64,000 nt of DNA from a virus. The translations under genes and the position numbers were made by a program. This document shows positions 9,208 to 56,266 of the stretch, in pieces. Position 1 is the stretch's first letter. Each line of letters starts with the position of its first letter. The stretch lies in IMG/VR virus record IMGVR_UViG_3300025892_000010; one strand, given 5' to 3'. The notes beneath the pieces are model-generated. The model was not told the DNA's origin and searched no databases. It was given only the letters and a program-made list of their open reading frames with translations.

Positions 9208-11037
9208 TTATTGTAATGATTTCAAAGCAGCTATTTCTGCCTGTAAAGTATTTATTCGTGTTGACACCCTAGCTAGAGCATTCATTTGAACAGCAATTGG
9301 GTCATTACTTATATAGACATTTAAGGATGCCTCTTTATATATTTGTTGCTGTTCTAATATATTTAGTTTTTCAAATAACTCTAGGTTACCATCAGGAATT
9401 GTTCCACCGTTTAATCTTTTGTTCTTATATGCCGTTAAATCTGGTGCATTTGAAGATAACCCTGCTGATATTACTAAAGAAGTTGCTTGTAGTTTTTGGT
9501 CAACTCTTTTTAATTTAGAATTTATTTTTGCAATAATTCTTTCTACTTTTTTACCTATGCTGTCAATGTCGGTAGTGGCAATCTTCCTGTCCGAGACAGA
9601 TACATCTGTCTCATCTTCCACAACTTCGCCATCACTCTCCGTCTCCTTTTGTCCTTCTGTTTCCTTATCTTCAACCACCTCTGGTTCATTAGATACAACA
9701 TCACTCTCTTGTCCTTCCGGCTTTGTTGTTTTTTCATCTGTTGATAAAGTTTCCTCTGTCTTAACGGTTTCTGTTGTAAGTTCTTCATTAGTAGCATTTG
9801 GTTCTTCCTTTATGTTAGATTCTTCGGTTGTTTTTGACTCTATCATATCGTTATTTTCTACTTCAAAATTACTCGTCATTGTCTCTTCTTCTTTAAATTC
9901 TTCCATCTTCGGTTCTTCCATCATAATTTCTGGTTCATTTAAACTAGCAATTTCATTCATCATATCACCACCTAATTCTTTCATCATACTATCGCCTAAC
10001 TCCTCAAAAAATTGTTGTTCAGTAATACCTTCAACTTTTAATTCTTGTTTAAAATCTTGTACTAGATTATTGGTTTCTATAAAATCTGTAAATTGCATTT
10101 CTACAAATTCTTCAAACTTTACTTCTTCTATTTTACCAAGGTCATCTTCAACTATAACCTCAAATTTTATTTCCTCTATTTTTACTTCTTCCATTTTATC
10201 TATTTCTTTAAATGCGTCATCAACTTTATTATCTAAATCTAGGAATAAATCTTTACCATCAGAGGTTTTTAAATCAACTGCGTCTGCAATATCATTACCT
10301 GCGTCTGTACAAGTTCCTAATTCTGAGCAAGGTGTAATTGTTGTAGTGTTAACACCAGCAGTTGTAATAGATAACTGAACATTATCTACATCTGGTCCCC
10401 AATGGGCACCATCATTACCTGTGCCAGCTGTATTATTATAAACTTCAGCTCTTATTGTAAAATCTGTTTGTGTATTTGCATTGTGAGTATAACTATCAGT
10501 TTGATTATTCCATTGACCACTATTCGTTGACCTATTCGGGTCGTAGTCATTTATATTTCTTGTTTGTGTAGTTACCGTACCATCACCGGCTGTGATAGTT
10601 TGTTTAAGTGTTAGTGTGTTTTCAACACTATTCCAAAACCAAATGTCTGCTGACATTGTTGAAGTAAAACCCTCATTGATTTGTGATTGTGTTAAATGAC
10701 TATCGCCAACTAAATCTACATCTTGGTAAATACTACCATTTGGGTCGCCTTCAAATGCTAAAACACCACCTGAAGTATTTTGTCCTGATTGAGTTGAACC
10801 TGTTGTGGAGGTGTGGCCTTGACCGACATCACCTGAAATTGTCCAACCGTTTGAGTTGTAACCAGATGTTCCGAAAGTTGAGTTTGTTAAGACGTTGCCT
10901 GTGGTTGTTCCTGCTGTAGATGTAGTACAGGTACGGTCACCAAGGTCGTTGGTTGTACAGGTCTCTGCCTTACTTACGTTTAGAAAAGTCGTAAGGGTTA
11001 AGGCTATGACCAAACTTATAAACTTTATAACTTGCAT
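9208..11037 (-). CDS. Exported protein: signal peptide, beta-rich (CBM-like) domain, acidic linker, coiled coil
   Basis: MQVIKFISLVIALTLTTFLNVSKA signal; Cys pairs; NSTF..GW..YQDVDL..GPDVDNVQL pattern. Confidence 0.65.
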   Translation of the reverse strand: MQVIKFISLVIALTLTTFLNVSKAETCTTNDLGDRTCTTSTAGTTTGNVLTNSTFGTSGYNSNGWTISGDVGQGHTSTTGSTQSGQNTSGGVLAFEGDPNGSIYQDVDLVGDSHLTQSQINEGFTSTMSADIWFWNSVENTLTLKQTITAGDGTVTTQTRNINDYDPNRSTNSGQWNNQTDSYTHNANTQTDFTIRAEVYNNTAGTGNDGAHWGPDVDNVQLSITTAGVNTTTITPCSELGTCTDAGNDIADAVDLKTSDGKDLFLDLDNKVDDAFKEIDKMEEVKIEEIKFEVIVEDDLGKIEEVKFEEFVEMQFTDFIETNNLVQDFKQELKVEGITEQQFFEELGDSMMKELGGDMMNEIASLNEPEIMMEEPKMEEFKEEETMTSNFEVENNDMIESKTTEESNIKEEPNATNEELTTETVKTEETLSTDEKTTKPEGQESDVVSNEPEVVEDKETEGQKETESDGEVVEDETDVSVSDRKIATTDIDSIGKKVERIIAKINSKLKRVDQKLQATSLVISAGLSSNAPDLTAYKNKRLNGGTIPDGNLELFEKLNILEQQQIYKEASLNVYISNDPIAVQMNALARVSTRINTLQAEIAALKSLQ

Positions 11038-11972: not shown

Positions 11973-12191
11973 TTATTCTAGTATCAAAGCCTTAATGCCT
12001 TTTGAGCCATCAATATTAATTTCTAATTCTGCCTTTGACTTAATGCAACTATACTGAACACTACCATTGGTTTTCAATTGTCTCTCGGCTATTCTTTTTC
12101 CTTTGAGACAAATTGACATAGTGTCTTGAATTCTATGCTCCTTAATTTCATTATTCACAATCATAAGTAATGCTACAATTGTTTCAATCAT
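11973..12191 (-). CDS. Small exported/membrane protein with two Cys
   Basis: Hydrophobic N-terminus, 72 aa. Confidence 0.55.
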   Translation of the reverse strand: MIETIVALLMIVNNEIKEHRIQDTMSICLKGKRIAERQLKTNGSVQYSCIKSKAELEINIDGSKGIKALILE

Positions 12192-17630: not shown

Positions 17631-18113
17631 TTAATCTTCTAGGAGTTTTTTGAGAAGTCTGATAGTTCTTGAAGTATCACCATTATGGACAACACCTTGT
17701 CCACCTTTAGCTCTAAATTCATTAACGTTTTTAGGATAATCGTCTATCAGTATTGAATTCTTATCTGCGTATTGTTGTTTTTGTACACGCTTAACAAGAT
17801 TAATTCTATTAGAGGCAATGCCAAGATTTTTGGTTGCCCAATATTTTTTACCAGGTATACAATTCTTATCGTAAGTATCCTCTACGTAAGCTGATAAAAT
17901 TTCTGTATTATATTTTTTTAGGAAGTTCCAGAGTTGTTTGCCGCCTTTATGCCAAGGTAATGTAGACCAAAAATCTGGTTTACTTTTGATAGTACCCCAT
18001 TTTTCAGACTTACTGCCTTGAGCCCAAACGTCAATCTTCTTGCCGGTAAGTGTTTCAGCACCTTTTACAAAGTCGCATAGCACACCATCCATATCACAAT
18101 AGATTTTTTTCAT
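17631..18113 (-). CDS. HAD-family 5'(3')-nucleotidase
   Basis: YCDMDGVLCDF, LIDD motifs. Confidence 0.8.
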   Translation of the reverse strand: MKKIYCDMDGVLCDFVKGAETLTGKKIDVWAQGSKSEKWGTIKSKPDFWSTLPWHKGGKQLWNFLKKYNTEILSAYVEDTYDKNCIPGKKYWATKNLGIASNRINLVKRVQKQQYADKNSILIDDYPKNVNEFRAKGGQGVVHNGDTSRTIRLLKKLLED

Positions 18114-18136
18114 AGTGTTTGTCCTTTCATACTAGT

Positions 18137-37449: not shown

Positions 37450-38838
37450 TTAGTCAATGCTGTATTTGGTTGTTATCACGTATTTTCTTTGGGGATTGAC
37501 CATAACGTTTAATCTCTTCATAAATGCACGGTCTAATAAGATAGGAGTTCTATCTTCTCTATCGTCAATGGTAAATTCTACATCTTTATAGAAACCACCG
37601 GCAAATTCTACATCTAGTTTTACGACATATCGGTCTTCATCATAATCTCTTAAGCCACCAACTTTAATCTCTTCTTTACGGACAATATCACTTGTAATAG
37701 TTTTACCTAATAAAGACCAAGTTATTTTATTACCATTGATTTTGTATTTGTCAGAGTGAATTACTGGCATTCCAGAATTACCCGTATCAAATTTTGAAAT
37801 TAATTCACCAAACGGTTTTATGGTCAAAATCTCCTTAAAACCACATTCCGTTGGCACAGAATATCTATTCTCCTCATTTGCAAAATGTTTAATTACTTCT
37901 TTTGCAATATTCATTTTAGTTGCTTCTTCTATACCCTCTGTACCAGGTGAAGAGTTTACTTCAAGAAAATATGGTGGTTTGTTTACTCTGTCTTTACTTG
38001 GTATAAAGTCAACAGCAGTCCAATATCCACCAACTGCCTTTGAGGCTAATAAGCATTGTTCTATTTCTAATTCTGTTAGTTTAATATTTTCTGGTTTAGA
38101 ACCTTGCGATACATTTGACCTAAAATCTCCTTCAATTACAGGTCGTTTCATAGCCGCTAAAAATTTACCACCTAGTATATGTACTCTGACATCATATTCT
38201 GTTTTAATATATTCTTGTATTAATAAATCTGTGTCTTCATCTTGTTTGTGTATAAGTTGTACAATAGAATCTAAACCTTTTGGACTATCTACAAATAAAA
38301 CACCAACACCTTTTGACCCTCTTAAAGTTTTCATAATTAAAGGAAACTTAATACCTGATTCATCAACTATCTCATTTGATTTTTCGGGGTCATTAATTAG
38401 TTTTGTTTGAGGTTGTGTTAGACCATAATCTGCAAGTCTTAATGAAGTTCTATATTTGTCAGCACACATATTAATTGTAGTTCTAGGATTTACCAACGTT
38501 GCATTGGCTCTTTCTAATATAGATACAAAGTCTAACCAACTATCTTTACGTGTAATAGAACCACGAACAATAGCAACGGTCATAGCACCAACTTCAAAAC
38601 CTTTTTTATCATCTTGATTATGAAATTTACGGATGCCGTCTTCGTAAGTGGTATAGCCACCTGTAAGTTTAAAAAGATAATATGGATAATTTAACTTATC
38701 ACATTCCTCTTTCAACCTATCGGCAGTATGAAATTCTTTTGCATTATCTGGCTCATCTGTAATAATGAGCAAACGCAAAAAGTCCTTTTTAGCCTCTGTT
38801 ATGTAATCTTTAAACTTGCTTACCTGCATTGCCTTCAT
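37450..38838 (-). CDS. RimK-like ATP-grasp ligase fused to a C-terminal DTG protease-like domain
   Basis: GSKGVGV, IQEYI, FRSNVSQG, LEVNSSPG; KFDTGN...ILLDRAF. Confidence 0.8.
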   Translation of the reverse strand: MKAMQVSKFKDYITEAKKDFLRLLIITDEPDNAKEFHTADRLKEECDKLNYPYYLFKLTGGYTTYEDGIRKFHNQDDKKGFEVGAMTVAIVRGSITRKDSWLDFVSILERANATLVNPRTTINMCADKYRTSLRLADYGLTQPQTKLINDPEKSNEIVDESGIKFPLIMKTLRGSKGVGVLFVDSPKGLDSIVQLIHKQDEDTDLLIQEYIKTEYDVRVHILGGKFLAAMKRPVIEGDFRSNVSQGSKPENIKLTELEIEQCLLASKAVGGYWTAVDFIPSKDRVNKPPYFLEVNSSPGTEGIEEATKMNIAKEVIKHFANEENRYSVPTECGFKEILTIKPFGELISKFDTGNSGMPVIHSDKYKINGNKITWSLLGKTITSDIVRKEEIKVGGLRDYDEDRYVVKLDVEFAGGFYKDVEFTIDDREDRTPILLDRAFMKRLNVMVNPQRKYVITTKYSID

Positions 38839-39259
38839 CTGTACTCGCTTCGTTAGGTTTCTTACCTATATTATATTTAGCGTTCAAAGTCCATTCGTTC
38901 TTTTCTTTATATGGCAAGACTTTGATTTGAGATAAAGGTGCTTTGTCTTCTACTTTAGATTTGTCAACAATATCTATTAAGTTCCAGTCTTGTAATAATA
39001 AAGCTATAGTATTTCTTCTTTGAATATCGTTGTTAACAAGTGTTGATGATTTACCGTCTAAAGCAAATAATTCTTTAAAATGTGTTATAAAGTATTTACC
39101 TTGTTTATGTAAAATATGGCAAGATTGAAATAATGTTTTATCTTTTCTACTTGCGACACCGATTCTTGTTAGGGTTTCTCTGACTTTTAAGAAGTCATCT
39201 GGTTGTTTGATGGTGACCTCAAGCATTTGCTCTGGCGACCAGTTAATATTTTCACTCAT
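38810..39259 (-). CDS. regA: Translational repressor RegA
   Basis: DDFLKVRETLTRIG, CHILHKQG. Confidence 0.95.
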   Translation of the reverse strand: MSENINWSPEQMLEVTIKQPDDFLKVRETLTRIGVASRKDKTLFQSCHILHKQGKYFITHFKELFALDGKSSTLVNNDIQRRNTIALLLQDWNLIDIVDKSKVEDKAPLSQIKVLPYKEKNEWTLNAKYNIGKKPNEASTDEGNAGKQV

Positions 39260-43437: not shown

Positions 43438-43780
43438 TGGTAGTTTTTCTTTTTTGAGTTTAAAACTACCAAAACATTAACTCGCAGCTTTAGTTTGTTT
43501 TTTTACAGGTGGTGCGAAACTAAGCGCAAATGCTAAAACAATCCACCATTGAGTTTCACTCTCGCTCTACTCAACAACTTTCAGGCAGAGGTAGGTCTCA
43601 CCCTCTTTATACTAACTTATCTTACTAAGCCTATCACCGTAGTGCTACGAAGACCAATGAGCCCAAAACTCATAATTCTTGGTGGTTTTTATAGAGACCA
43701 CCAACTCTACCGGTTCGTTAATAGATTAACAGGTCGGCAACCTCTCCACGCCAGCAGGACTTACGAGTTGCCCGCTCATC
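43438..43780 (-). ncRNA. Putative pseudoknot-rich structured RNA
   Basis: Several H-type pseudoknots and hairpins; no credible minus-strand ORF; GATAAATA at 43783-43790. Confidence 0.55.
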
Positions 43781-43814
43781 TATATTTATCATCATCTAGG
43801 CACAGGCGGGGAAA

Positions 43815-44024
43815 TTAGTAACCTCTTGTTTGTTCAAGTTTCTTCATCTTTTTCTTGAAGTTCTTGATACCCTCTTTTTTCTTCTCACGCTTGATTTCAC
43901 TAGGCTTTTGATAGTATTGTTTAGCTCTTAACTCTTTTACAATACCCTCTTTTTGTACTTTTTTCTTAAGCACTCTCATAGCTTTTTCAAGGTTTCCTTT
44001 TCTTACTTCTACAACTATTGACAA
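43815..44024 (-). CDS. rpsU: Ribosomal protein bS21
   Basis: VEVRKGNLEKAMRVLKKK...YYQKPSE; TTG start. Confidence 0.88.
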   Translation of the reverse strand: MSIVVEVRKGNLEKAMRVLKKKVQKEGIVKELRAKQYYQKPSEIKREKKKEGIKNFKKKMKKLEQTRGY

Positions 44025-44029
44025 ATTAA

Positions 44030-44149
44030 TTACCTTCCTTCCTTGTCGTTGTTATTAGAATCAATACAATTAAGTATTAAATATAAAACACCAATACTAA
44101 TTGGTATGGTTATAAACAAAAATAATATAGCACTCTCAATATCAAACAT
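44030..44149 (-). CDS. 39-aa membrane peptide
   Basis: MFDIESAILFLFITIPISIGVLYLILNCIDSNNNDKEGR. Confidence 0.5.
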   Translation of the reverse strand: MFDIESAILFLFITIPISIGVLYLILNCIDSNNNDKEGR

Positions 44150-44160
44150 AAATTCTTTCC

Positions 44161-44219
44161 GTGTAAAAACGGTGACGAGGCCACTACACCTCGCCACCAA
44201 GGACTTACACTATGATAAT
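44161..44219 (-). ncRNA. 3'-UTR antisense element plus terminator hairpin (candidate sRNA)
   Basis: TTATCATAGTGTAAGTCCTT followed by GGTGGCGAGGT-GTAGTG-GCCTCGTCACC and GTTTTT. Confidence 0.55.
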
Positions 44220-45416
44220 TTAGATAACGTCAGCGTCATCCGAGGATTCATCTTCCTCATCCGTTTGAGAGTCAACTTCAGCTTTTCTCTGGTCTTCAGC
44301 GATTTGCTCGGCAGAAGCACCAGCGTCCACTTTAGTGTATAACTCCATAAACGAATTCTTTGTATCATCATCAAATCTATTCGTACAAACTTCAATAGCT
44401 TTTATTTTTTGATTAAAGATTGTATAGGCTTGAATAATGTGGACTAATCTTCTCGTTGAGATAATCTCATCAACACCACCGTCAAAGTAGGTTTTTCTGA
44501 TTACATCAGCCCAAGTTACCAACTTCTTACAAAAGTCGGCGTCTTTTTTACCAGACTTGGCAAGAGTACCAACTAGGATTTTTTCTTCAATCTTAGCAGT
44601 AGGATACTTTTGCTCAAAGGTAATTGGAAATCTTTCCAAGAACGCTTCGTTAAGTACGTTAGTACCTATAAATTTACCGTCATCACTACCTTGACCTTTT
44701 GTATTGGCAGTAGCAACAACATTGAAGCCATTAGCAGGTTTTACAAACTTGTTAATCTTCTTAACATAAACACCTGAGCCTTCAAGTATCGGTTGTAAAC
44801 ACATAATCTTGTTAGAGGCAAGGTCAATCTCATCAAGAAGCAACAATGCACCTCTCTCCATCGCCTCAATAACAGGACCATTTTGCCAAACGGTCTGACC
44901 ATCTTTAAGTCTGTAACCACCTAAAAGGTCATCTTCATCTGTTTCAATTGTAATGTTAACCCTAATCAGTTCTTTTCTTGCTTCGGCACAAGCTTGGGTC
45001 ACACCCATAGTTTTACCGTTACCAGATAAACCTGTAATGAATACAGGATAAAACATATTAGATTTTACAATTGATTTTAAATCGGGATAATTACCGAATG
45101 ATACGAACACAGGATCCTTTTTAGGAACAATGTCGCCAACTAATGAAGATACCACATAGGCAGCTTCAGAGTTAGTTGTAGTTTCAATAGGTAAAACTTT
45201 TTCAGTTTCGCCTTTAGTTTTAACTACTTCGTTTTCAGTAGGTAATTTAAAGAGTGATTTGCCAACTTTGAAATCACTATTTTTTATCAACCATTGTGGC
45301 GCATACTTGCAACCAAAATGTTTGTTGGCGCTCTTTAATTGAGTCACCGTCAATTCGTTTGTACCAAACTTTTTAACAGCATAGTCAACGAATTCTTGTT
45401 GTTTAGCATTTAACAT
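44220..45416 (-). CDS. MoxR/CobS-like AAA+ ATPase
   Basis: GLSGNGKT, LLLDEID, ATANT, AFLERF, STRR. Confidence 0.88.
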   Translation of the reverse strand: MLNAKQQEFVDYAVKKFGTNELTVTQLKSANKHFGCKYAPQWLIKNSDFKVGKSLFKLPTENEVVKTKGETEKVLPIETTTNSEAAYVVSSLVGDIVPKKDPVFVSFGNYPDLKSIVKSNMFYPVFITGLSGNGKTMGVTQACAEARKELIRVNITIETDEDDLLGGYRLKDGQTVWQNGPVIEAMERGALLLLDEIDLASNKIMCLQPILEGSGVYVKKINKFVKPANGFNVVATANTKGQGSDDGKFIGTNVLNEAFLERFPITFEQKYPTAKIEEKILVGTLAKSGKKDADFCKKLVTWADVIRKTYFDGGVDEIISTRRLVHIIQAYTIFNQKIKAIEVCTNRFDDDTKNSFMELYTKVDAGASAEQIAEDQRKAEVDSQTDEEDESSDDADVI

Positions 45417-45456
45417 AGTGTATTGTCCTTTCGCTTTCATTATTAATTATACGTAT

Positions 45457-45485
45457 ATCCTATCATACTGATTCGCTTTTGGCAA
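45457..45485 (-). promoter_or_regulatory. Early sigma70-type promoter
   Basis: TTGCCA-17-TAGGAT. Confidence 0.7.
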
Positions 45486-45526
45486 CCCATAAAATTTATG
45501 AGACCAGGTAAGGGTTGTGGAACCCA

Positions 45527-47785
45527 TTAAGCAACCTCCTGTATGAATTTGTTTAAAACTACTCTTGAAGTGATTCGGTTCTTCATAGAACCAGCAAACA
45601 ATCTTTTTAATTCACTAGTAGTTCCTTTCTTAACGGTAGCATCCTGCATATTAAAGTTCTCAACATTCATAGCTTTACCATTGATTAAGAAATATTTGTT
45701 ATATCCAAACTTATCAACAACAACTGCTTTTTCTTTAGTCATTTGTTTTCTCATAGCTAGATATTTTTTGTCTCTATCAAAATAGTCTTTAGCGTCAACA
45801 TATCTTTCTAGGTCCCATCTTCTAATTCTTTTTAGAATATAAAAACCAATAGTGTTTACATCATAAGTATGTTTAATATGTTCTAATATCATACCAGTAA
45901 GGTTTTCATCTGAATCTTTTTTGACTAATTTTTTCTTACCAATCATATATACTTTTTCAGTAGACCAATCATAATCTTTATTGTCACCAAAAACTTTACC
46001 TCTCATACCATTGGCACCACCATCTGTTAGAGTAATAAAAGTCATCTTCTCAATACCATATTTTTTCTTAAACATTGGTACCAATTCATTACAATAAACT
46101 AAAGCTTCGTTTAATGGTGTATTACCTAAACTGAATTCGCTTGGTATACCATAAGCAGAGGGCTTATTATGGTCATAGTCTCTATAACCTCTACCATAAT
46201 TAGACTTGTAATAATCTCCCATATGGTACATATACATCATAGATAAATCTAATTGTCTTTTAGTCATTTTGTGGCTGGCAACATTAACTAAATTAAAGTT
46301 TTCAAAATACCAATCACCATCTTTATATGTAAATGACTTATCATAACCAGTAGAATCAGACATATATTTTCTTTCACTAGTAAAGAAGTAAACCTCAAAA
46401 GGTATATTAACTCTTCTAACAAACTCTACCAAGTTAATTAATTGTTGTATGGTTTCACTCAATACATCTGACATAGAACCTGACCAATCAAGCAACATCA
46501 TCATACCGTGGTTTTTACCATCAGGAACAATAGTCAATCTTTTGAATATGTCATCACTATGTTTGTATTTTGGCAATTTTAATGGGTCAATAATACCAGT
46601 TTTATCTGTACTTGCTCTCTTATAAGCAGTAGCGGCTTTTTTCATTTCAAATTCTTTTACAAGATATGATACCGTTTTTTTATTATCTTTGATAAACTTT
46701 TTGTAATCATTTAATAACCACTTATCATATGAAGCTGTATTAGTATAACTTCTCGCTTTGACTTTTTCTTTTTCAAAAGCTTTTAAGAAATCTTGGTAAG
46801 AAGTCAAACCGTCTTTAAAGTTTGCTTTTGGAATATTACCATAAGTATAACCTTTAATGTCTCTGTTTAATAATTCTGTATGTTTATTATCAAAAGCTTC
46901 CTGTGTAACCGCTTTAAGTAATTTACCATTATCAAAATCACCACCAGCACCAGGTCCATAATGAGAAGACTCTTCTTTATTTTTATCTTTCTCATCTGAT
47001 TTTTTACCCTCTTCAAGGTCGCCATCTTGGTTAGCAGACTTTTCACTATCTGCTTTTTCATCACCAAAGTTATTGAAATCATTTTTTTCATCAGCGTCAT
47101 CACTTGACTCATCTGATTCTTGATAAGCATTTGATTCTTCTTCATCATCAAAATCATCTTCATCATTACCAAGGTCATAATTTTTAGCAATAACGTGATT
47201 GTCAAAATCTGGTAACTTCTTCATTTGCTCAACTTGTTTTTTCTGCCAATCAATTAACTCTTTGGCCAAAGCAACGGTATCAGCAAACGTTTTGATAGCG
47301 TCAACTTTAGCCAACCATTTTTTATCATCAGGAGCAAATATGAATGGTAATCTGTTTAATGATTTACTTCTCATATTAATTTTGTCAATTAACATAAGGT
47401 CTTTATTAATATCTTTACCTAGTAAACCAAAGAAATTCTTTTTATCTAATAAATCAAAACCGTTTTGATAGTTTCTAACAACACCAGGATATTTGTTTTG
47501 AATTAACTTGTCAATTCTAGTATCTTCAAGGACATTAACATATGCTCTTAATTCTTGGTCATCACATATTGAAGACCATTCTTCATATGGTGTCCATAAA
47601 GCGTGAGCACATTCGTGAGCAATTAACATATCATACACATCACCTTTTTGTTCTTTAAAAATAGGTAATGTTAGTACACGATTCTTTACATCAAAAGAAG
47701 CTGTCTTAACTTTGTTGTGTTGGATTATTATATTCTCTGTAGCAATTAGTTTTGCTAGAGTGCCTTTTACATCAAGATTTATCAT
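45527..47785 (-). CDS. CobT-like VWA protein with N-terminal HExxH domain and acidic linker
   Basis: AHECAH, NVLEDTRI, DWSGSM MIDAS, NTPL, LTDG. Confidence 0.82.
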   Translation of the reverse strand: MINLDVKGTLAKLIATENIIIQHNKVKTASFDVKNRVLTLPIFKEQKGDVYDMLIAHECAHALWTPYEEWSSICDDQELRAYVNVLEDTRIDKLIQNKYPGVVRNYQNGFDLLDKKNFFGLLGKDINKDLMLIDKINMRSKSLNRLPFIFAPDDKKWLAKVDAIKTFADTVALAKELIDWQKKQVEQMKKLPDFDNHVIAKNYDLGNDEDDFDDEEESNAYQESDESSDDADEKNDFNNFGDEKADSEKSANQDGDLEEGKKSDEKDKNKEESSHYGPGAGGDFDNGKLLKAVTQEAFDNKHTELLNRDIKGYTYGNIPKANFKDGLTSYQDFLKAFEKEKVKARSYTNTASYDKWLLNDYKKFIKDNKKTVSYLVKEFEMKKAATAYKRASTDKTGIIDPLKLPKYKHSDDIFKRLTIVPDGKNHGMMMLLDWSGSMSDVLSETIQQLINLVEFVRRVNIPFEVYFFTSERKYMSDSTGYDKSFTYKDGDWYFENFNLVNVASHKMTKRQLDLSMMYMYHMGDYYKSNYGRGYRDYDHNKPSAYGIPSEFSLGNTPLNEALVYCNELVPMFKKKYGIEKMTFITLTDGGANGMRGKVFGDNKDYDWSTEKVYMIGKKKLVKKDSDENLTGMILEHIKHTYDVNTIGFYILKRIRRWDLERYVDAKDYFDRDKKYLAMRKQMTKEKAVVVDKFGYNKYFLINGKAMNVENFNMQDATVKKGTTSELKRLFAGSMKNRITSRVVLNKFIQEVA

Positions 47786-47812
47786 AGTGTTGTCCTTTTT
47801 CATTATGTATAT

Positions 47813-47841
47813 ATCCTACAGGAGAAAATCGCAAATGTCAA
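47813..47841 (-). promoter_or_regulatory. Early sigma70-type promoter
   Basis: TTGACA-17-TAGGAT. Confidence 0.75.
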
Positions 47842-47885
47842 GCGTTTTATTTCCTACGGTCCATAACGGTTACCGACTATACTAT

Positions 47886-47900
47886 GTTCTGGTATTGTTC
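47886..47900. promoter_or_regulatory. Alphaproteobacterial LexA-box-like site
   Basis: GTTC-TGGTATT-GTTC (GTTC-N7-GTTC). Confidence 0.4.
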
Positions 47901-47918
47901 TATTTTGTGTGATTCTTG

Positions 47919-48335
47919 CTACCGATTGTCGCCGGAACCTGATAGTTTCCCACGATTCGCTCTGTCTAGTAGTTTATCTAAATTAGTGTTAGCAATGTCG
48001 GAAAGCTTAAAACCAATATCATCAGCCAATATACTGATATACCAAAGGCAATCGCCAAGTTCTTTGGCGAGCTCTCCTCTATAATCTTTATTATTTTCAT
48101 ATCCGTCTCTTAATAGTTTTTTGACCTTGTTAGCTACTTCTCCTGCTTCACCGGTCAATCCTAATGTCGGATATACTATGGCCTGTTCTCTCGGATATAT
48201 TGCCGTTGTCTTTGCAACCCTTTGGTACATATCTAGGTCGCTTACTCTTTTGTATTTATGATTCTCATTTGTTCTAGTACCAAATTCTTTTTCCAATTGT
48301 CCTTCTCCTTGTTCTTCAAGATATAAATTTGTCAT
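47919..48335 (-). CDS. MazG-like NTP pyrophosphohydrolase
   Basis: GLTGEAGEVANKVKK...ELGDCLWY. Confidence 0.85.
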   Translation of the reverse strand: MTNLYLEEQGEGQLEKEFGTRTNENHKYKRVSDLDMYQRVAKTTAIYPREQAIVYPTLGLTGEAGEVANKVKKLLRDGYENNKDYRGELAKELGDCLWYISILADDIGFKLSDIANTNLDKLLDRANRGKLSGSGDNR

Positions 48336-48339
48336 TTAG

Positions 48340-49638
48340 TTATCTTCCTACCTGTGTTAAATATTTTGATTTACATTCTTCCCAAGACATATAGATAATA
48401 TCATCATAGAAATGTGTCTCTTTAGATACTCTGTCTTGTTTCTTTAAACTAGCCAATCTCTTCTTGGCGTACTTGTTCTTCCATAAATCAGTTAATGCTT
48501 CTACTGAATTGTCAAATTTTCTTATTAATTTGTCTTCTTTTATTTCTTCTCTTAAAAATTCTCTAGTATTTTCGTATAATTCACCAAAGTATATGCCTCT
48601 AGCGTGTTCAGACTTTATAAGTTTCTTATCTATACCTAGTTTATTATATGTAAATGTATGACTTCTATTTCTATGGTCTCTTTTATGTGGTTGACCTGTG
48701 TCTTTCTTTGCAACATACCATTCAAAGTATTTGTAAGTGTGTTGTTTCTTTAACCAGTTTTGTATCATCATTCTAGTTGGTTTTAATGGTTCATATGAAA
48801 CTGAACCAGCAGTCCAACCCATTTTCTTCCAGTTTTTAAGTCTATCATATTGTGATAATGGTATTGTTTTTGTTTTACCATATAGACTTGTTGTGGTTAC
48901 ACCTACTAGTTTATCTTTATATTGATATTCCCAGGTCTTTTCTACCGTATCTGATAGACATAGTAAAGCTAGTAGTTTCCCACCAACCAGGTTGTATCCA
49001 AGCGGCTGTATTGGTACAATTGTACTTCCGATACACGTATGATTAATCATTCTTTGCGTCTTGGCCTCACGTTCCCAGCCAATGTAATTGTCTCTAGGTG
49101 TAAGGTCTAGGAAATCACTAGACATACAGGTAACACCAAGTAATTTCTTTGTTTTCTTATCTCTAATTAAAAAGTTTAAATTTCTACCAATATTACTATT
49201 GTTTTTCATAGTAGATAAAAACGTTCTCATACCATTCCAGATTGCTGGCATATTGGCACCAGTAATAGATTTTACATCATCACCATCTGTCCATAATAAT
49301 TCAGGTTCTAAATTTAAGTATTCTTCGGGGTCTTCAGGCAACCAGAAATTGTTTTTAATCTCTTGTAGTAAAGCGCCTTGTTGTGGATTTTTAAGTGCTG
49401 GTTTATCATCAAAGAAACTATTTGTTTCTGCTGTAGGATATTTGTCGTGTACCTCACACCATTTTTGATATAAAGTATATTCTTTTACATCCATTTGAGA
49501 TACATAAGATAAATCTTTAATGATTGTTTCTTTTAATGTATCTGTATCTATATCTGGTATTTTGTCTAATGGATTGTGTTCTTGCCAACTTTCCCATTGG
49601 TCGTCAATAGACATACCTTTTTTCCACGAATAAGCCAT
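48340..49638 (-). CDS. DUF4338 (DruA-like) protein, second paralog
   Basis: IVPIQPLGYNLVGGKLLA...TTTSLYG; promoter TTGACA-17-TAGGAT at 49648-49676. Confidence 0.65.
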   Translation of the reverse strand: MAYSWKKGMSIDDQWESWQEHNPLDKIPDIDTDTLKETIIKDLSYVSQMDVKEYTLYQKWCEVHDKYPTAETNSFFDDKPALKNPQQGALLQEIKNNFWLPEDPEEYLNLEPELLWTDGDDVKSITGANMPAIWNGMRTFLSTMKNNSNIGRNLNFLIRDKKTKKLLGVTCMSSDFLDLTPRDNYIGWEREAKTQRMINHTCIGSTIVPIQPLGYNLVGGKLLALLCLSDTVEKTWEYQYKDKLVGVTTTSLYGKTKTIPLSQYDRLKNWKKMGWTAGSVSYEPLKPTRMMIQNWLKKQHTYKYFEWYVAKKDTGQPHKRDHRNRSHTFTYNKLGIDKKLIKSEHARGIYFGELYENTREFLREEIKEDKLIRKFDNSVEALTDLWKNKYAKKRLASLKKQDRVSKETHFYDDIIYMSWEECKSKYLTQVGR

Positions 49639-54345: not shown

Positions 54346-54792
54346 TTAATGGATAGTTTTATCTTCCTCATCATCATCAAATTCTTCAAATATTTCTCTT
54401 AATTTTTTAGAGTCCAAATCACCTAATTGTTCAGACTTATAATTCTTATCTTCTTTCGGAGGCCGAAGAGTGTGATAATCTTTAGAGATAATCGCATACT
54501 GACCTGCCATTTCTTTAGTAGCACCGGCGATAGTCATAATTTTATCTTTAGGTATAGTAATTATGTTATCAGGTGAAAAGTTTACCCAACGAATCAAAGC
54601 AATATAATCCTTAAATCCACCAGGTGTGAATTGAGGTATATACTTAACCTGTAAAGGCTTTTCTAATCTTAATAGTGGTGAGTTATCCGGAAGTTGAGTA
54701 TCTTTCTCCGGTAAATGACAAACTATGTCATCACCATTTATTAATTTAATTAACTTTATATTAGTTTTATTATCTTTAATCTCTTGGTGCAT
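54346..54792 (-). CDS. Conserved T4-like hypothetical protein
   Basis: IKLINGDDIV; similar pattern to 37108-37422. Confidence 0.6.
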   Translation of the reverse strand: MHQEIKDNKTNIKLIKLINGDDIVCHLPEKDTQLPDNSPLLRLEKPLQVKYIPQFTPGGFKDYIALIRWVNFSPDNIITIPKDKIMTIAGATKEMAGQYAIISKDYHTLRPPKEDKNYKSEQLGDLDSKKLREIFEEFDDDEEDKTIH

Positions 54793-56266
54793 TGTCTATC
54801 TCTACGTTGTGAATTTCATAATCAAAGTCTTCGCCGTTGTATATATTTATCCGTTCTCTAAAGTGTGCCAAAGTATAGTTTTCCTTTTCATTATAAGTTA
54901 AATCGTCTGCGACATCATACAAAGTTGCGTGTGAATTATTATCTTTTAATCGGAGACCTCTACCTATTGATTGTAAGTTTCTTATCCTGGATTTACTAGG
55001 ACTAGCAAAAATAATGTTATGCAAATTCCTAATATTAATGCCGGTACTGAAAGTCCCATAACTCGCAACGATAATAGAGTTGTCAGACTTTTCTGTAAGT
55101 TCTCTAATACGTTCTCTTTCTTCGGTATCAACACCACCATAAACATAAAAAACCTGTTTATCAGTAGCCTTATCTTTAATTGCTTCATACAAATCCTTTC
55201 CGTGTTTTTCTACATATTGAAACAAACATAGTGTATTGCCTTGTAGGCCAGAGGCCAAATTTCTTATGTACTTATTTCTTTTTTCGTGAGAGACTAAAAA
55301 GTCCATTTCTTCTTGATATGTTTTACCTTTAATAAATTCTCTTTCTTGTTTACCGTGTTGTAAGACCAAACAATATATTTTGAGGTCAGCTAGTTTTCCC
55401 TTTTCCTGAAGTTCAGTTGTGGATACTACCTTATTTACAGCACCAAACAAACCCTCTAATACTAATTTGTGTGTTTTACTACCATCTAAAGTACCTGTCA
55501 TTCCTACTCTATATGGACATTTTACTAACTTGGTCATTATCTTTGTTAATGATATTGCTTTAAATAAGTGTGCTTCATCACCAATAATCATACCAAATTG
55601 TTGAAACCATTTTTTAGGTTGATTGTATATAGATTGCCAAGTAGATATTATAATAGACTTGTTTGTTTCTTTTTCGTGACCTTGATATATTCTATGTACA
55701 TTTTTTTCAGGCGACCAACCATAATCTTTAAAATCTTTAAACAATTGTTCTACTAATGATGTTGTTGGTACAATAATTAATATTTTTTTATTGTTCTCTT
55801 TTAATCTTAATATATTAAATCTTACCAATAGATAAGTTATCAGAGATTTACCAGAGGCAGTTGGCGACAATAACAAGCACCTATTTGTTCTTGTTGCATA
55901 TACAAATGCCTCTTTTTGGTAATCTCTAACTTTGAAAGGTATCTTTAAGGCTTCAATAAACTTATTAACTTTTTTATCATCAACCTTTGTTTCAGTAATT
56001 TTTGTTCCGTCAACTACTTCTATTTGATTGTCTTTACACCATTGTAATATGTAAAGATAAAGACCAGCATATATCTGTCCTGTTTGATAAGAGAATAATC
56101 TAATTTTACCGTCCCATTGTCTTGCCCTATATTGAGGCATAAACTTAAAACCTGGCACTTCAAACGTAAAGAATTCTCCTAACTCTCTACGAATAGAATC
56201 ATCAGCTTCAATTTTTAGGTAAACATCATCCTTCTTATCAATGATAAGGTATCTTACATTGGTCAT
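54776..56266 (-). CDS. uvsW: Helicase UvsW
   Basis: PTASGKS, DEAH, QSIGRGLR. Confidence 0.93.
   Translation of the reverse strand: MTNVRYLIIDKKDDVYLKIEADDSIRRELGEFFTFEVPGFKFMPQYRARQWDGKIRLFSYQTGQIYAGLYLYILQWCKDNQIEVVDGTKITETKVDDKKVNKFIEALKIPFKVRDYQKEAFVYATRTNRCLLLSPTASGKSLITYLLVRFNILRLKENNKKILIIVPTTSLVEQLFKDFKDYGWSPEKNVHRIYQGHEKETNKSIIISTWQSIYNQPKKWFQQFGMIIGDEAHLFKAISLTKIMTKLVKCPYRVGMTGTLDGSKTHKLVLEGLFGAVNKVVSTTELQEKGKLADLKIYCLVLQHGKQEREFIKGKTYQEEMDFLVSHEKRNKYIRNLASGLQGNTLCLFQYVEKHGKDLYEAIKDKATDKQVFYVYGGVDTEERERIRELTEKSDNSIIVASYGTFSTGINIRNLHNIIFASPSKSRIRNLQSIGRGLRLKDNNSHATLYDVADDLTYNEKENYTLAHFRERINIYNGEDFDYEIHNVEIDNAPRD

Follow-up and report, generated by a model that had tools for sequence, protein, structure and literature searches.

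A conserved structured RNA beside the cobS stop codon of pelagimyophages and its complementarity to the start of its own gene

Why should the nucleotides that follow the stop codon of a phage gene read as the reverse complement of the site where translation of that same gene begins? This question is raised by a stretch of 64,000 nucleotides (nt) from IMG/VR virus record IMGVR_UViG_3300025892_000010 (hereafter, the window), and within it by a cobS-like gene and the RNA element lying directly beyond it. The window comes from a pelagimyophage, i.e., a T4-like phage infecting SAR11, whose closest cultured relative is Pelagibacter phage Mosig EXVC030M (79% nucleotide identity, in part of the region only). 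An initial annotation had placed a common motif at the starts of three early genes, called VWA, MoxR/CobS, and HAD nucleotidase, and the reverse complement of this motif directly after the CobS stop, and we found the copies where it had put them. In the form AAGGAC-N(1–4)-ACACTATG, the motif occurs four times in the window against a mean of 0.01 in shuffled sequences, with 0 of 100 shuffles reaching four copies. The observation is real and far from chance. All of the genes flanking the cobS element lie on the minus strand, and the features on which the argument turns are as follows.

44220–45416, minus strand: cobS-like gene for a MoxR-type AAA+ ATPase (398 codons plus stop; Pfam AAA_5 at 1.7e-17, and CbbQ_C), with its start codon at 45414–45416 and its stop codon TAA at 44220–44222.
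45411–45442, minus strand: leader of cobS with its initiation region, AAUGAAAGCGAAAGGACAAUACACUAUG, which is the arm's universal partner.
18111–18126, 45414–45430, and 47783–47797, minus (coding) strand: the motif in sense orientation, at the 5' end of nucleotidase, cobS, and VWA, respectively.
44199–44214, plus strand: the remaining copy of the motif, antisense on minus-strand RNA and directly after the cobS stop.
44199–44219, minus strand: anti-initiation arm of 21 nt, AUUAUCAUAGUGUAAGUCCUU, beginning 1 nt past the cobS stop.
44170–44199, minus strand: hairpin P2, with 12 pairs, the hexaloop GUAGUG (44182–44187), and a U5 tail; base 44199 belongs both to its outermost U-G pair and to the arm.
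44161–44167, minus strand: 3' strand of the local helix P1, UUUACAC, which is the local partner of GUGUAAG (44204–44210) and imitates part of the initiation motif.

The arm has two blocks, CAUAGUGU and GUCCUU, which are the antisense of ACACUAUG and AAGGAC, respectively. The pairings first proposed, namely 6+12 base pairs (bp) with the VWA site and 6+9 bp each with the cobS and nucleotidase sites, were correct when recomputed, and the strong hairpin with a U-tract said to follow the arm is there (12 pairs plus U5), as is the pairing of GUGUAA with the downstream UUUACAC (44204–44210 with 44161–44167). In the placement of the genes, the motif positions held, though the cobS start is at 45414–45416 and the motif in VWA makes up codons 3–8 and is not a plain leader. 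The gene names also need qualifying: ‘CobS’ is a MoxR-type ATPase of the AAA_5/CbbQ_C kind, ‘VWA’ lacks a Pfam match but has the sequence DWSGS, and ‘HAD’ is a weak NT5C match. A possible fourth site occurs at 12117–12124, ahead of or within an open reading frame (ORF) of 72 residues. Another motif-like copy on the minus strand (GGCCUCUGGCC-UAC-AAGGCAAUACACUAUG, 55227–55250; core 55227–55234) was set aside, as it lies within a 496-residue ORF (54776–56266) and not at a gene start, and would be either chance or an internal start. Read on the plus strand, the hairpin and AAGGAC-TT-ACACTATG could be taken for the beginning of a gene, a reading that was rejected, given that the window's ORF is just MII* (3 codons) and lacks conservation.

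Is the antisense copy peculiar to this one phage? A search of IMG/VR with the CobS protein gave 376 relatives, of which the best 80 were fetched, their CobS being 74–99% identical to that of the window. At every fetched locus that has the cobS stop, the next 0–20 nt read (C)AUAGUGU-A(A)(G)-UCCU and are succeeded by a GC hairpin, in 50 distinct versions altogether, while the distance of the arm start from the stop codon ranges from -4 to +15 nt over all lineages. The antisense copy is present in all of the pelagimyophage cobS loci examined, and both its position and its content are stable down to 74% CobS identity, with no sign of mobility. The nearest record (G001), a fragment of 24.5 kb, contributed little. 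A covariance model built from these pelagimyophage loci found exactly one copy per locus in 77 loci. Moreover, 80 loci were fetched after a loose DNA pattern scan of IMG/VR; 62 of them were chance matches, which left for use the 18 that the covariance model confirmed. On these 18 further contigs, all elements sit at the end of a cobS-type ORF, the cobS match being on the contig in 16 cases and the contig ending earlier in two. The four cyanomyophage cobS loci checked have no intergenic space after cobS, no ACACUAUG start, and no match to the covariance model, and a scan of 43500–48500 against Rfam 15 (E up to 10) gave only noise and nothing over the element. In the Mosig record (L001, MT647606.1), an annotated hypothetical protein (Mosig_00017, 10138–10245) overlaps the element and the end of cobS, and is probably a spurious ORF.

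To which gene, then, does the element belong? Downstream of it lies the gene for ribosomal protein S21.

43815–44024, minus strand: ribosomal protein S21 (Pfam match).

Most relatives have S21 within ~30 nt downstream of the element and no promoter between them, which implies read-through. What comes next on the 18 further contigs is S21 in some cases and a different gene in others, S21 then lying 0.4–1.6 kb onward, and since the element stays at the cobS stop whatever the next gene may be, it belongs to cobS and not to S21. A leader or autoregulatory site of S21 was rejected as the main explanation on the same grounds, the element keeping to the cobS stop when S21 is 0.4–1.6 kb away. As for the S21 gene itself, it has an apparent UUG start with AAGGAAGG ahead of it, and adjoins the element in most relatives. 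Between the element and S21, the window lineage and its closest relatives (L002–L009) have a 39-codon hydrophobic ORF (MFDIESAILFLF..., 44030–44149, minus strand).

Is the element selected, and as RNA? A fold energy of -37.1 kcal/mol is predicted for the 106-nt region (z = -4.6). Nine of the 12 P2 pairs have changed on both sides among the lineages, with 93.6% of cells paired and with G-U pairs among the changes, and none of 500 shuffles attained the covariation score of 0.36 (0.13 in shuffles). Of the 50 lineages, 45 have GUAGUG as the loop, and two (L054 and L056) have a GAAA tetraloop in place of the hexaloop. Another variant (L016, L017) has an extra small hairpin before the arm and pairs GUGUCCUUU with AAAGGACA. 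More conspicuously, the arm core UAGUGU is invariant in an alignment of 47 sequences, as one part of 12 invariant columns, whereas a codon alignment of cobS from the same lineages has only 17 of 206 (8%) synonymous third positions at invariant residues unchanged. The fixed non-coding bases are therefore under selection, and we consider it close to certain that the element is a functional RNA.

Could it be the local fold itself that is selected, the likeness to the motif being secondary? The element would in that case be a structural or protein-binding 3' element with P1 as its functional state, for which a stabilizing or terminating hairpin, an RNase site splitting cobS from the next cistron, and a phage or ribosomal protein that reads UAGUG are candidates. 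In keeping with a sequence-specific protein site, arm and loop each contain a conserved copy of UAGUG. The P1 partner follows variants of the arm (GUGUAAG/UUUACAC versus GUGUAGU/ACUACAC, as well as AUCCUU/AAGGAU), arms are matched by lineage to their local 3' flanks (0 of 3000 permutations), the AAGGA/UCCUU helix is flipped in L054, and the hairpin stands ahead of S21 in most relatives. Nevertheless, the element tracks the cobS stop and not the S21 start. Furthermore, the 3' partner in P1 differs by group (UUACAC, ACUACAC, or AAGGAU beside the hairpin) while the 5' arm is constant, and this one-sided variation means that the arm is constrained by something beyond P1; the helix alone leaves a fixed arm with a moving and changing partner unexplained.

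What else might hold the arm constant? In all of the relatives, the cobS start combines an early-type promoter, AAGGA, a variable spacer, and ACACUAUG. Duplexes between arm and site average -15.8 kcal/mol, as against -4.4 ± 2.1 kcal/mol for shuffled arms, and in all 41 distinct arm/site combinations, the arm pairs with site positions -5 to +1. When 76 ORFs of the window were each compared with their own 3' flank for complementarity to their own start, cobS was the lone outlier at -21.8 kcal/mol, the next being -14.3 and the mean -6.7 ± 3.3. A purely structural or protein-binding role accounts neither for this outlier nor for the 41 pairings, and we judge such a role unlikely. The hairpin directly 3' of the VWA stop, just before the cobS promoter (GGGUUCCACAACCC, 45500–45530, minus strand), is small and has no complementarity to the VWA 5' end, and hence self-pairing is specific to cobS.

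The manner in which the two partners vary was also informative. Site variants (AUACU, ACAUU, AUAUU, and GCACU) arise by transitions only (C>U, A>G), and all of them leave G-U pairs, while the GU-rich arm, in which any transition would break a pair, never varies. Such variation, confined to the site and preserving G-U, fits RNA pairing and argues against a repeat at the level of DNA. A DNA repeat would make the inverted copies around cobS a cassette or recombination boundary, or else an orientation-independent operator, and this idea draws on the fact that the same 15–17 bp are inverted at both ends of cobS, with the motif falling inside a repeated promoter-leader cassette at several early genes. 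However, the G-U pairs retained by the sense copies are mismatches in DNA, and an asymmetry with an unchanged GU-rich copy is expected only of RNA pairing. The adjoining hairpin too has compensatory changes of the RNA type, G-U included, and the stable position and content noted above give no hint of mobility, and so we regard the DNA explanation as highly improbable.

Complementarity between arm and motif was also retained in a lineage-matched way, which had been put forward as a check on the initial idea. Own-lineage arm/site pairs averaged -15.93 kcal/mol versus -14.88 ± 0.19 for swapped pairs, a difference equaled by 0 of 5000 permutations overall and by 25 of 5000 within arm groups. Matched changes were found as arm ACGUCC with site GGACGU (L066, L094), and as arm AUCCUU with site AAGGAU in group C (L060–L081). 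In the minimum free energy (MFE) fold of the 1291-nt window cobS mRNA, the leader is predicted to wrap around the base of the 3' hairpin with pair probabilities of 0.87–1.0, AAGGAC pairing with GUCCUU, UACACUAUG with CAUAGUGUA, and UGAAAGC with the U-run. Likewise, the predicted MFE folds hold 10–18 leader-arm pairs in 22 of 22 diverse relatives, and with a shuffled arm none are left in 18 of the 22. Taking these duplex and folding predictions together, we lean modestly toward the view that the element would work by pairing with the initiation region of cobS.

Several points weigh against it. Part of the arm is taken up by the local helix P1, a competitor of the long-range helix that is the earlier of the two to form as the RNA is transcribed. 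In L054, the part complementary to the Shine–Dalgarno (SD) sequence is flipped, with AAGGA now 5' and UCCUU 3', so that the local helix is kept and SD pairing lost. A model of action in cis gives the conserved GUAGUG loop no role. True compensatory events number only ~3, because both partners are almost invariant, and the permutation tests take no account of relatedness. Neither ribosomes nor the kinetics of folding enter into an MFE fold of a 1.3-kb mRNA, and the direction of the effect, whether repression or stabilization, is only what we infer. In four marine RNA-library runs from one study, 88–96% of sampled words were present, in contigs from which ends, strand, and level are not readable. 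One such contig (43635–44378) runs from within cobS across the element into S21, which as a contig is not proof of transcription, and these data show neither transcript ends nor transcription as such.

Might the same RNA act on other mRNAs? The initial annotation had favored either a small RNA (sRNA) derived from the 3' untranslated region (UTR) or long-range cis pairing, in both cases repressing a regulon of early mRNAs. The genes and promoters concerned are given here.

45527–47803, minus strand: ‘VWA’ protein, with a MIDAS-like DWSGS motif and without a Pfam match.
47783–47803, minus strand: VWA gene 5' end, AUGAAAAAGGACAACACUAUG; the conserved start is AUG 47801–47803, and the AUG of the motif (47783–47785) is a possible second start.
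47813–47841, minus strand: VWA early-type promoter TTGACA-17-TAGGAT.
45457–45485, minus strand: cobS early-type promoter TTGCCA-17-TAGGAT, with an equivalent promoter in relatives.
17631–18113, minus strand: ‘HAD’ nucleotidase, a weak NT5C match under the Pfam cut-off.
18111–18133, minus strand: nucleotidase initiation region, AUGAAAGGACAAACACUAUGA.
38810–39259, minus strand: RegA (Pfam PF01818, 4e-44).

An sRNA acting in trans would be a released or terminated fragment of ~60 nt, reaching from the cobS stop to the hairpin, whose arm, with or without the loop, shuts VWA, cobS, and nucleotidase as a regulon. For a 65-nt fragment, with P1 and the opening of the target costed, predicted net binding is -15.8 kcal/mol for VWA, -14.0 for nucleotidase, and -11.0 for cobS, which are ranks 1, 2, and 3 of 76 over a background of -3.3 ± 2.7. 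The three or four window sites take ranks 1–4 of the 76, the VWA site coming out best of all partners predicted for the arm in the window (duplex -23.5 kcal/mol, net -15.8). The hairpin with its U5 tail is terminator-like here, the run of U at the P1 3' strand giving the tail in the window lineage. In the complete Mosig genome, moreover, 6 of 6 sense copies of the motif fall at annotated gene starts and the sole antisense copy is the element, and complementarity between the arm and the VWA 5' end is lineage-matched (0 of 3000 permutations). On the other hand, the motif is found in every lineage only at cobS, the set of genes bearing it varying by lineage from one (cobS only) to six, and some large contigs (G003, G005) have it at cobS alone. 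A U-tract of at least 4 consecutive U after the hairpin occurs in 22 of the 50 lineages, with the tail not U-rich in the other 28, and as S21 mostly follows within ~30 nt with no promoter, which implies read-through, a terminated sRNA is not a family-wide feature. We therefore keep the trans-acting sRNA as a minor possibility, plausible but unproven, which is compatible with cis pairing. Of the initial proposal, cis pairing is thus the part that gained support, since the cobS initiation region is the only universal partner of the arm, and a three-gene regulon as the conserved core did not.

With VWA, the relationship is of another kind. In the window, its in-frame AUG (47801–47803) is ~10 nt past the -10 box, and a start at 5–11 nt is conserved in relatives, which makes the VWA mRNA nearly leaderless. 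The motif constitutes codons 3–8 in the frame of the relatives, and the copy in L014 has no AUG. Pairing to VWA and nucleotidase is strong in the window and lineage-specific, and the VWA complementarity shifts between arm and loop across lineages. In group C, L058, and L061, the VWA codons ACC-ACU-ACA (Thr-Thr-Thr; GCACUACA in L058 and L061) are fixed synonymously while their neighbors vary. The hairpin apex, UGUAGUGG, is exactly complementary to these codons (-12.5 to -13.5 kcal/mol), and in group C this complementarity also speaks for action in trans. The sequence data hint that the conserved loop may contact the VWA mRNA by kissing, which is a post hoc observation. More speculatively, and with small odds in our estimation, the element could be a two-headed RNA hub, in which the arm closes the cobS mRNA unless terminating ribosomes hold it open and GUAGUG kisses CACUA(C/U) in the early VWA codons, and the output of the MoxR-type ATPase and its VWA partner is balanced from two transcripts by RNA-RNA contacts alone.

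Several further observations concern the leaders of these genes. Early promoters of this phage group read TTGACA/TTGCCA-17-TAGGAT, with AUGAAA within ~10 nt (47801–47841 and 45440–45485 in the window; loci L002–L081). For VWA, this AUGAAA is the conserved start, and for cobS it is an in-frame extension, an out-of-frame mini-ORF, or absent, depending on the lineage. The nucleotidase leader (18111–18133) has an upstream ORF of 6 codons, MKGQTL, whose UGA stop overlaps the main AUG, and the same arrangement is seen at cobS in L016 and L033. A RegA operator was also considered as the reason for the common motif and disfavored. The initiation regions of regA, 44, 45, and 62, the classical targets of RegA control, lack ACACUAUG, and the motif is not evidently a RegA operator; this weakens the idea, the operator sequence of this particular RegA not itself being established.

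How might the element work? From what is set out above, it is as cis pairing that the antisense idea finds support, and we infer from it pairing in vivo, repression, and a part for the ribosome. The element is a conserved structured RNA in the 3' UTR of pelagimyophage cobS mRNA. Its 5' arm (CAUAGUGU-AA-GUCCUU) adjoins the stop codon; beyond this come a hairpin rich in GC, closed by the fixed loop GUAGUG, and a brief 3' strand forming local pairs with part of the arm. Once the 3' end is transcribed, the arm would fold back across ~1.2 kb and cover the SD and AUG of its own mRNA. This closure would shut or throttle further initiation, and the duplex may form a double-stranded target for RNase III, as in icaR mRNA. 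Ongoing translation would be expected to reopen the cobS mRNA transiently, since a ribosome terminating on it has the arm, which starts no more than ~15 nt from the stop codon, inside its footprint. In lineages with the same leader cassette on other early genes, here VWA and nucleotidase, the arm could pair in trans or on read-through transcripts.

How does this compare with known systems? Bacterial 3' UTR regulation rests on a handful of cases, and for pairing between the 5' and 3' ends of one mRNA we know of essentially one that is well studied (icaR) and of none in a phage. In the enterobacterial 3' UTR-derived sRNAs CpxQ, SroC, and DapZ, a seed just upstream of the RNA's own terminator hairpin targets the initiation regions of other genes. 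The window has a like architecture of arm, hairpin, and U5; unlike in these sRNAs, the U-tract of the cobS element is not conserved in the family and its sole universal target is the parent mRNA. Start sites are hidden by long-range or hairpin pairing, and opened by ribosome passage or an alternative transcript, in the ‘Min Jou’ interaction of the RNA coliphage MS2 and in T4 early transcripts of the late genes e and soc. These MS2 and T4 pairings lie in coding regions or upstream leaders, whereas that of cobS joins a 3' UTR with its own 5' leader, and none shares sequence or hairpin with it. Our literature search found no such element in T4-like phages.

The closest parallel is the icaR mRNA of Staphylococcus aureus, where the 3' UTR contains an anti-SD motif; by pairing with the start region of the mRNA to which it belongs, this motif blocks the initiation complex and makes an RNase III substrate (Ruiz de los Mozos et al., 2013; PMC3868564). 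In the cobS 3' UTR, the arm is similarly complementary to its own SD, and additionally to the AUG (6+9 bp; 41 of 41 combinations), and a promoter-like site lies upstream of cobS and a terminator-like hairpin downstream, as a single transcript would have. The icaR mRNA differs in having a 3' UTR of >100 nt with UCCCCUG inside it, while the phage-encoded cobS arm begins 1 nt past the stop, covers SD and AUG in two blocks, and is joined to a conserved hairpin with a fixed loop. The likeness is one of mechanism only, the cobS side consisting of sequence and prediction. In the hbs mRNA of Bacillus subtilis, an interaction between the 5' and 3' UTRs is reported to control ribonuclease action and to couple stability to translation (PMC5737220). 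Both cases would involve pairing of the two ends of one mRNA that links translation with mRNA fate. As reported, the hbs interaction governs ribonuclease action and stability, unlike the hiding of a start site proposed for cobS.

Pelagimyophages infect the most abundant marine bacteria, SAR11, and to our knowledge nothing is known of their post-transcriptional control. Here, the element is real, selected, and so far undescribed, and defines a new structured RNA motif that is absent from Rfam. The recurrent early-gene leader cassette AUGAAA...AAGGAC...ACACUAUG is flagged as well, as gene callers mis-annotate such sequences, the probably spurious Mosig ORF over the element being an example. As a family-wide element under purifying selection, it comes with >60 natural variants that make up a ready-made mutational series, and this renders the idea directly testable by reporters, structure probing, and the cultured Mosig/HTCC1062 pair. 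Were the two-headed hub true, T4-like phages would have in it their first described regulatory RNA from a 3' UTR, and likewise their first 5'–3' UTR circuit.

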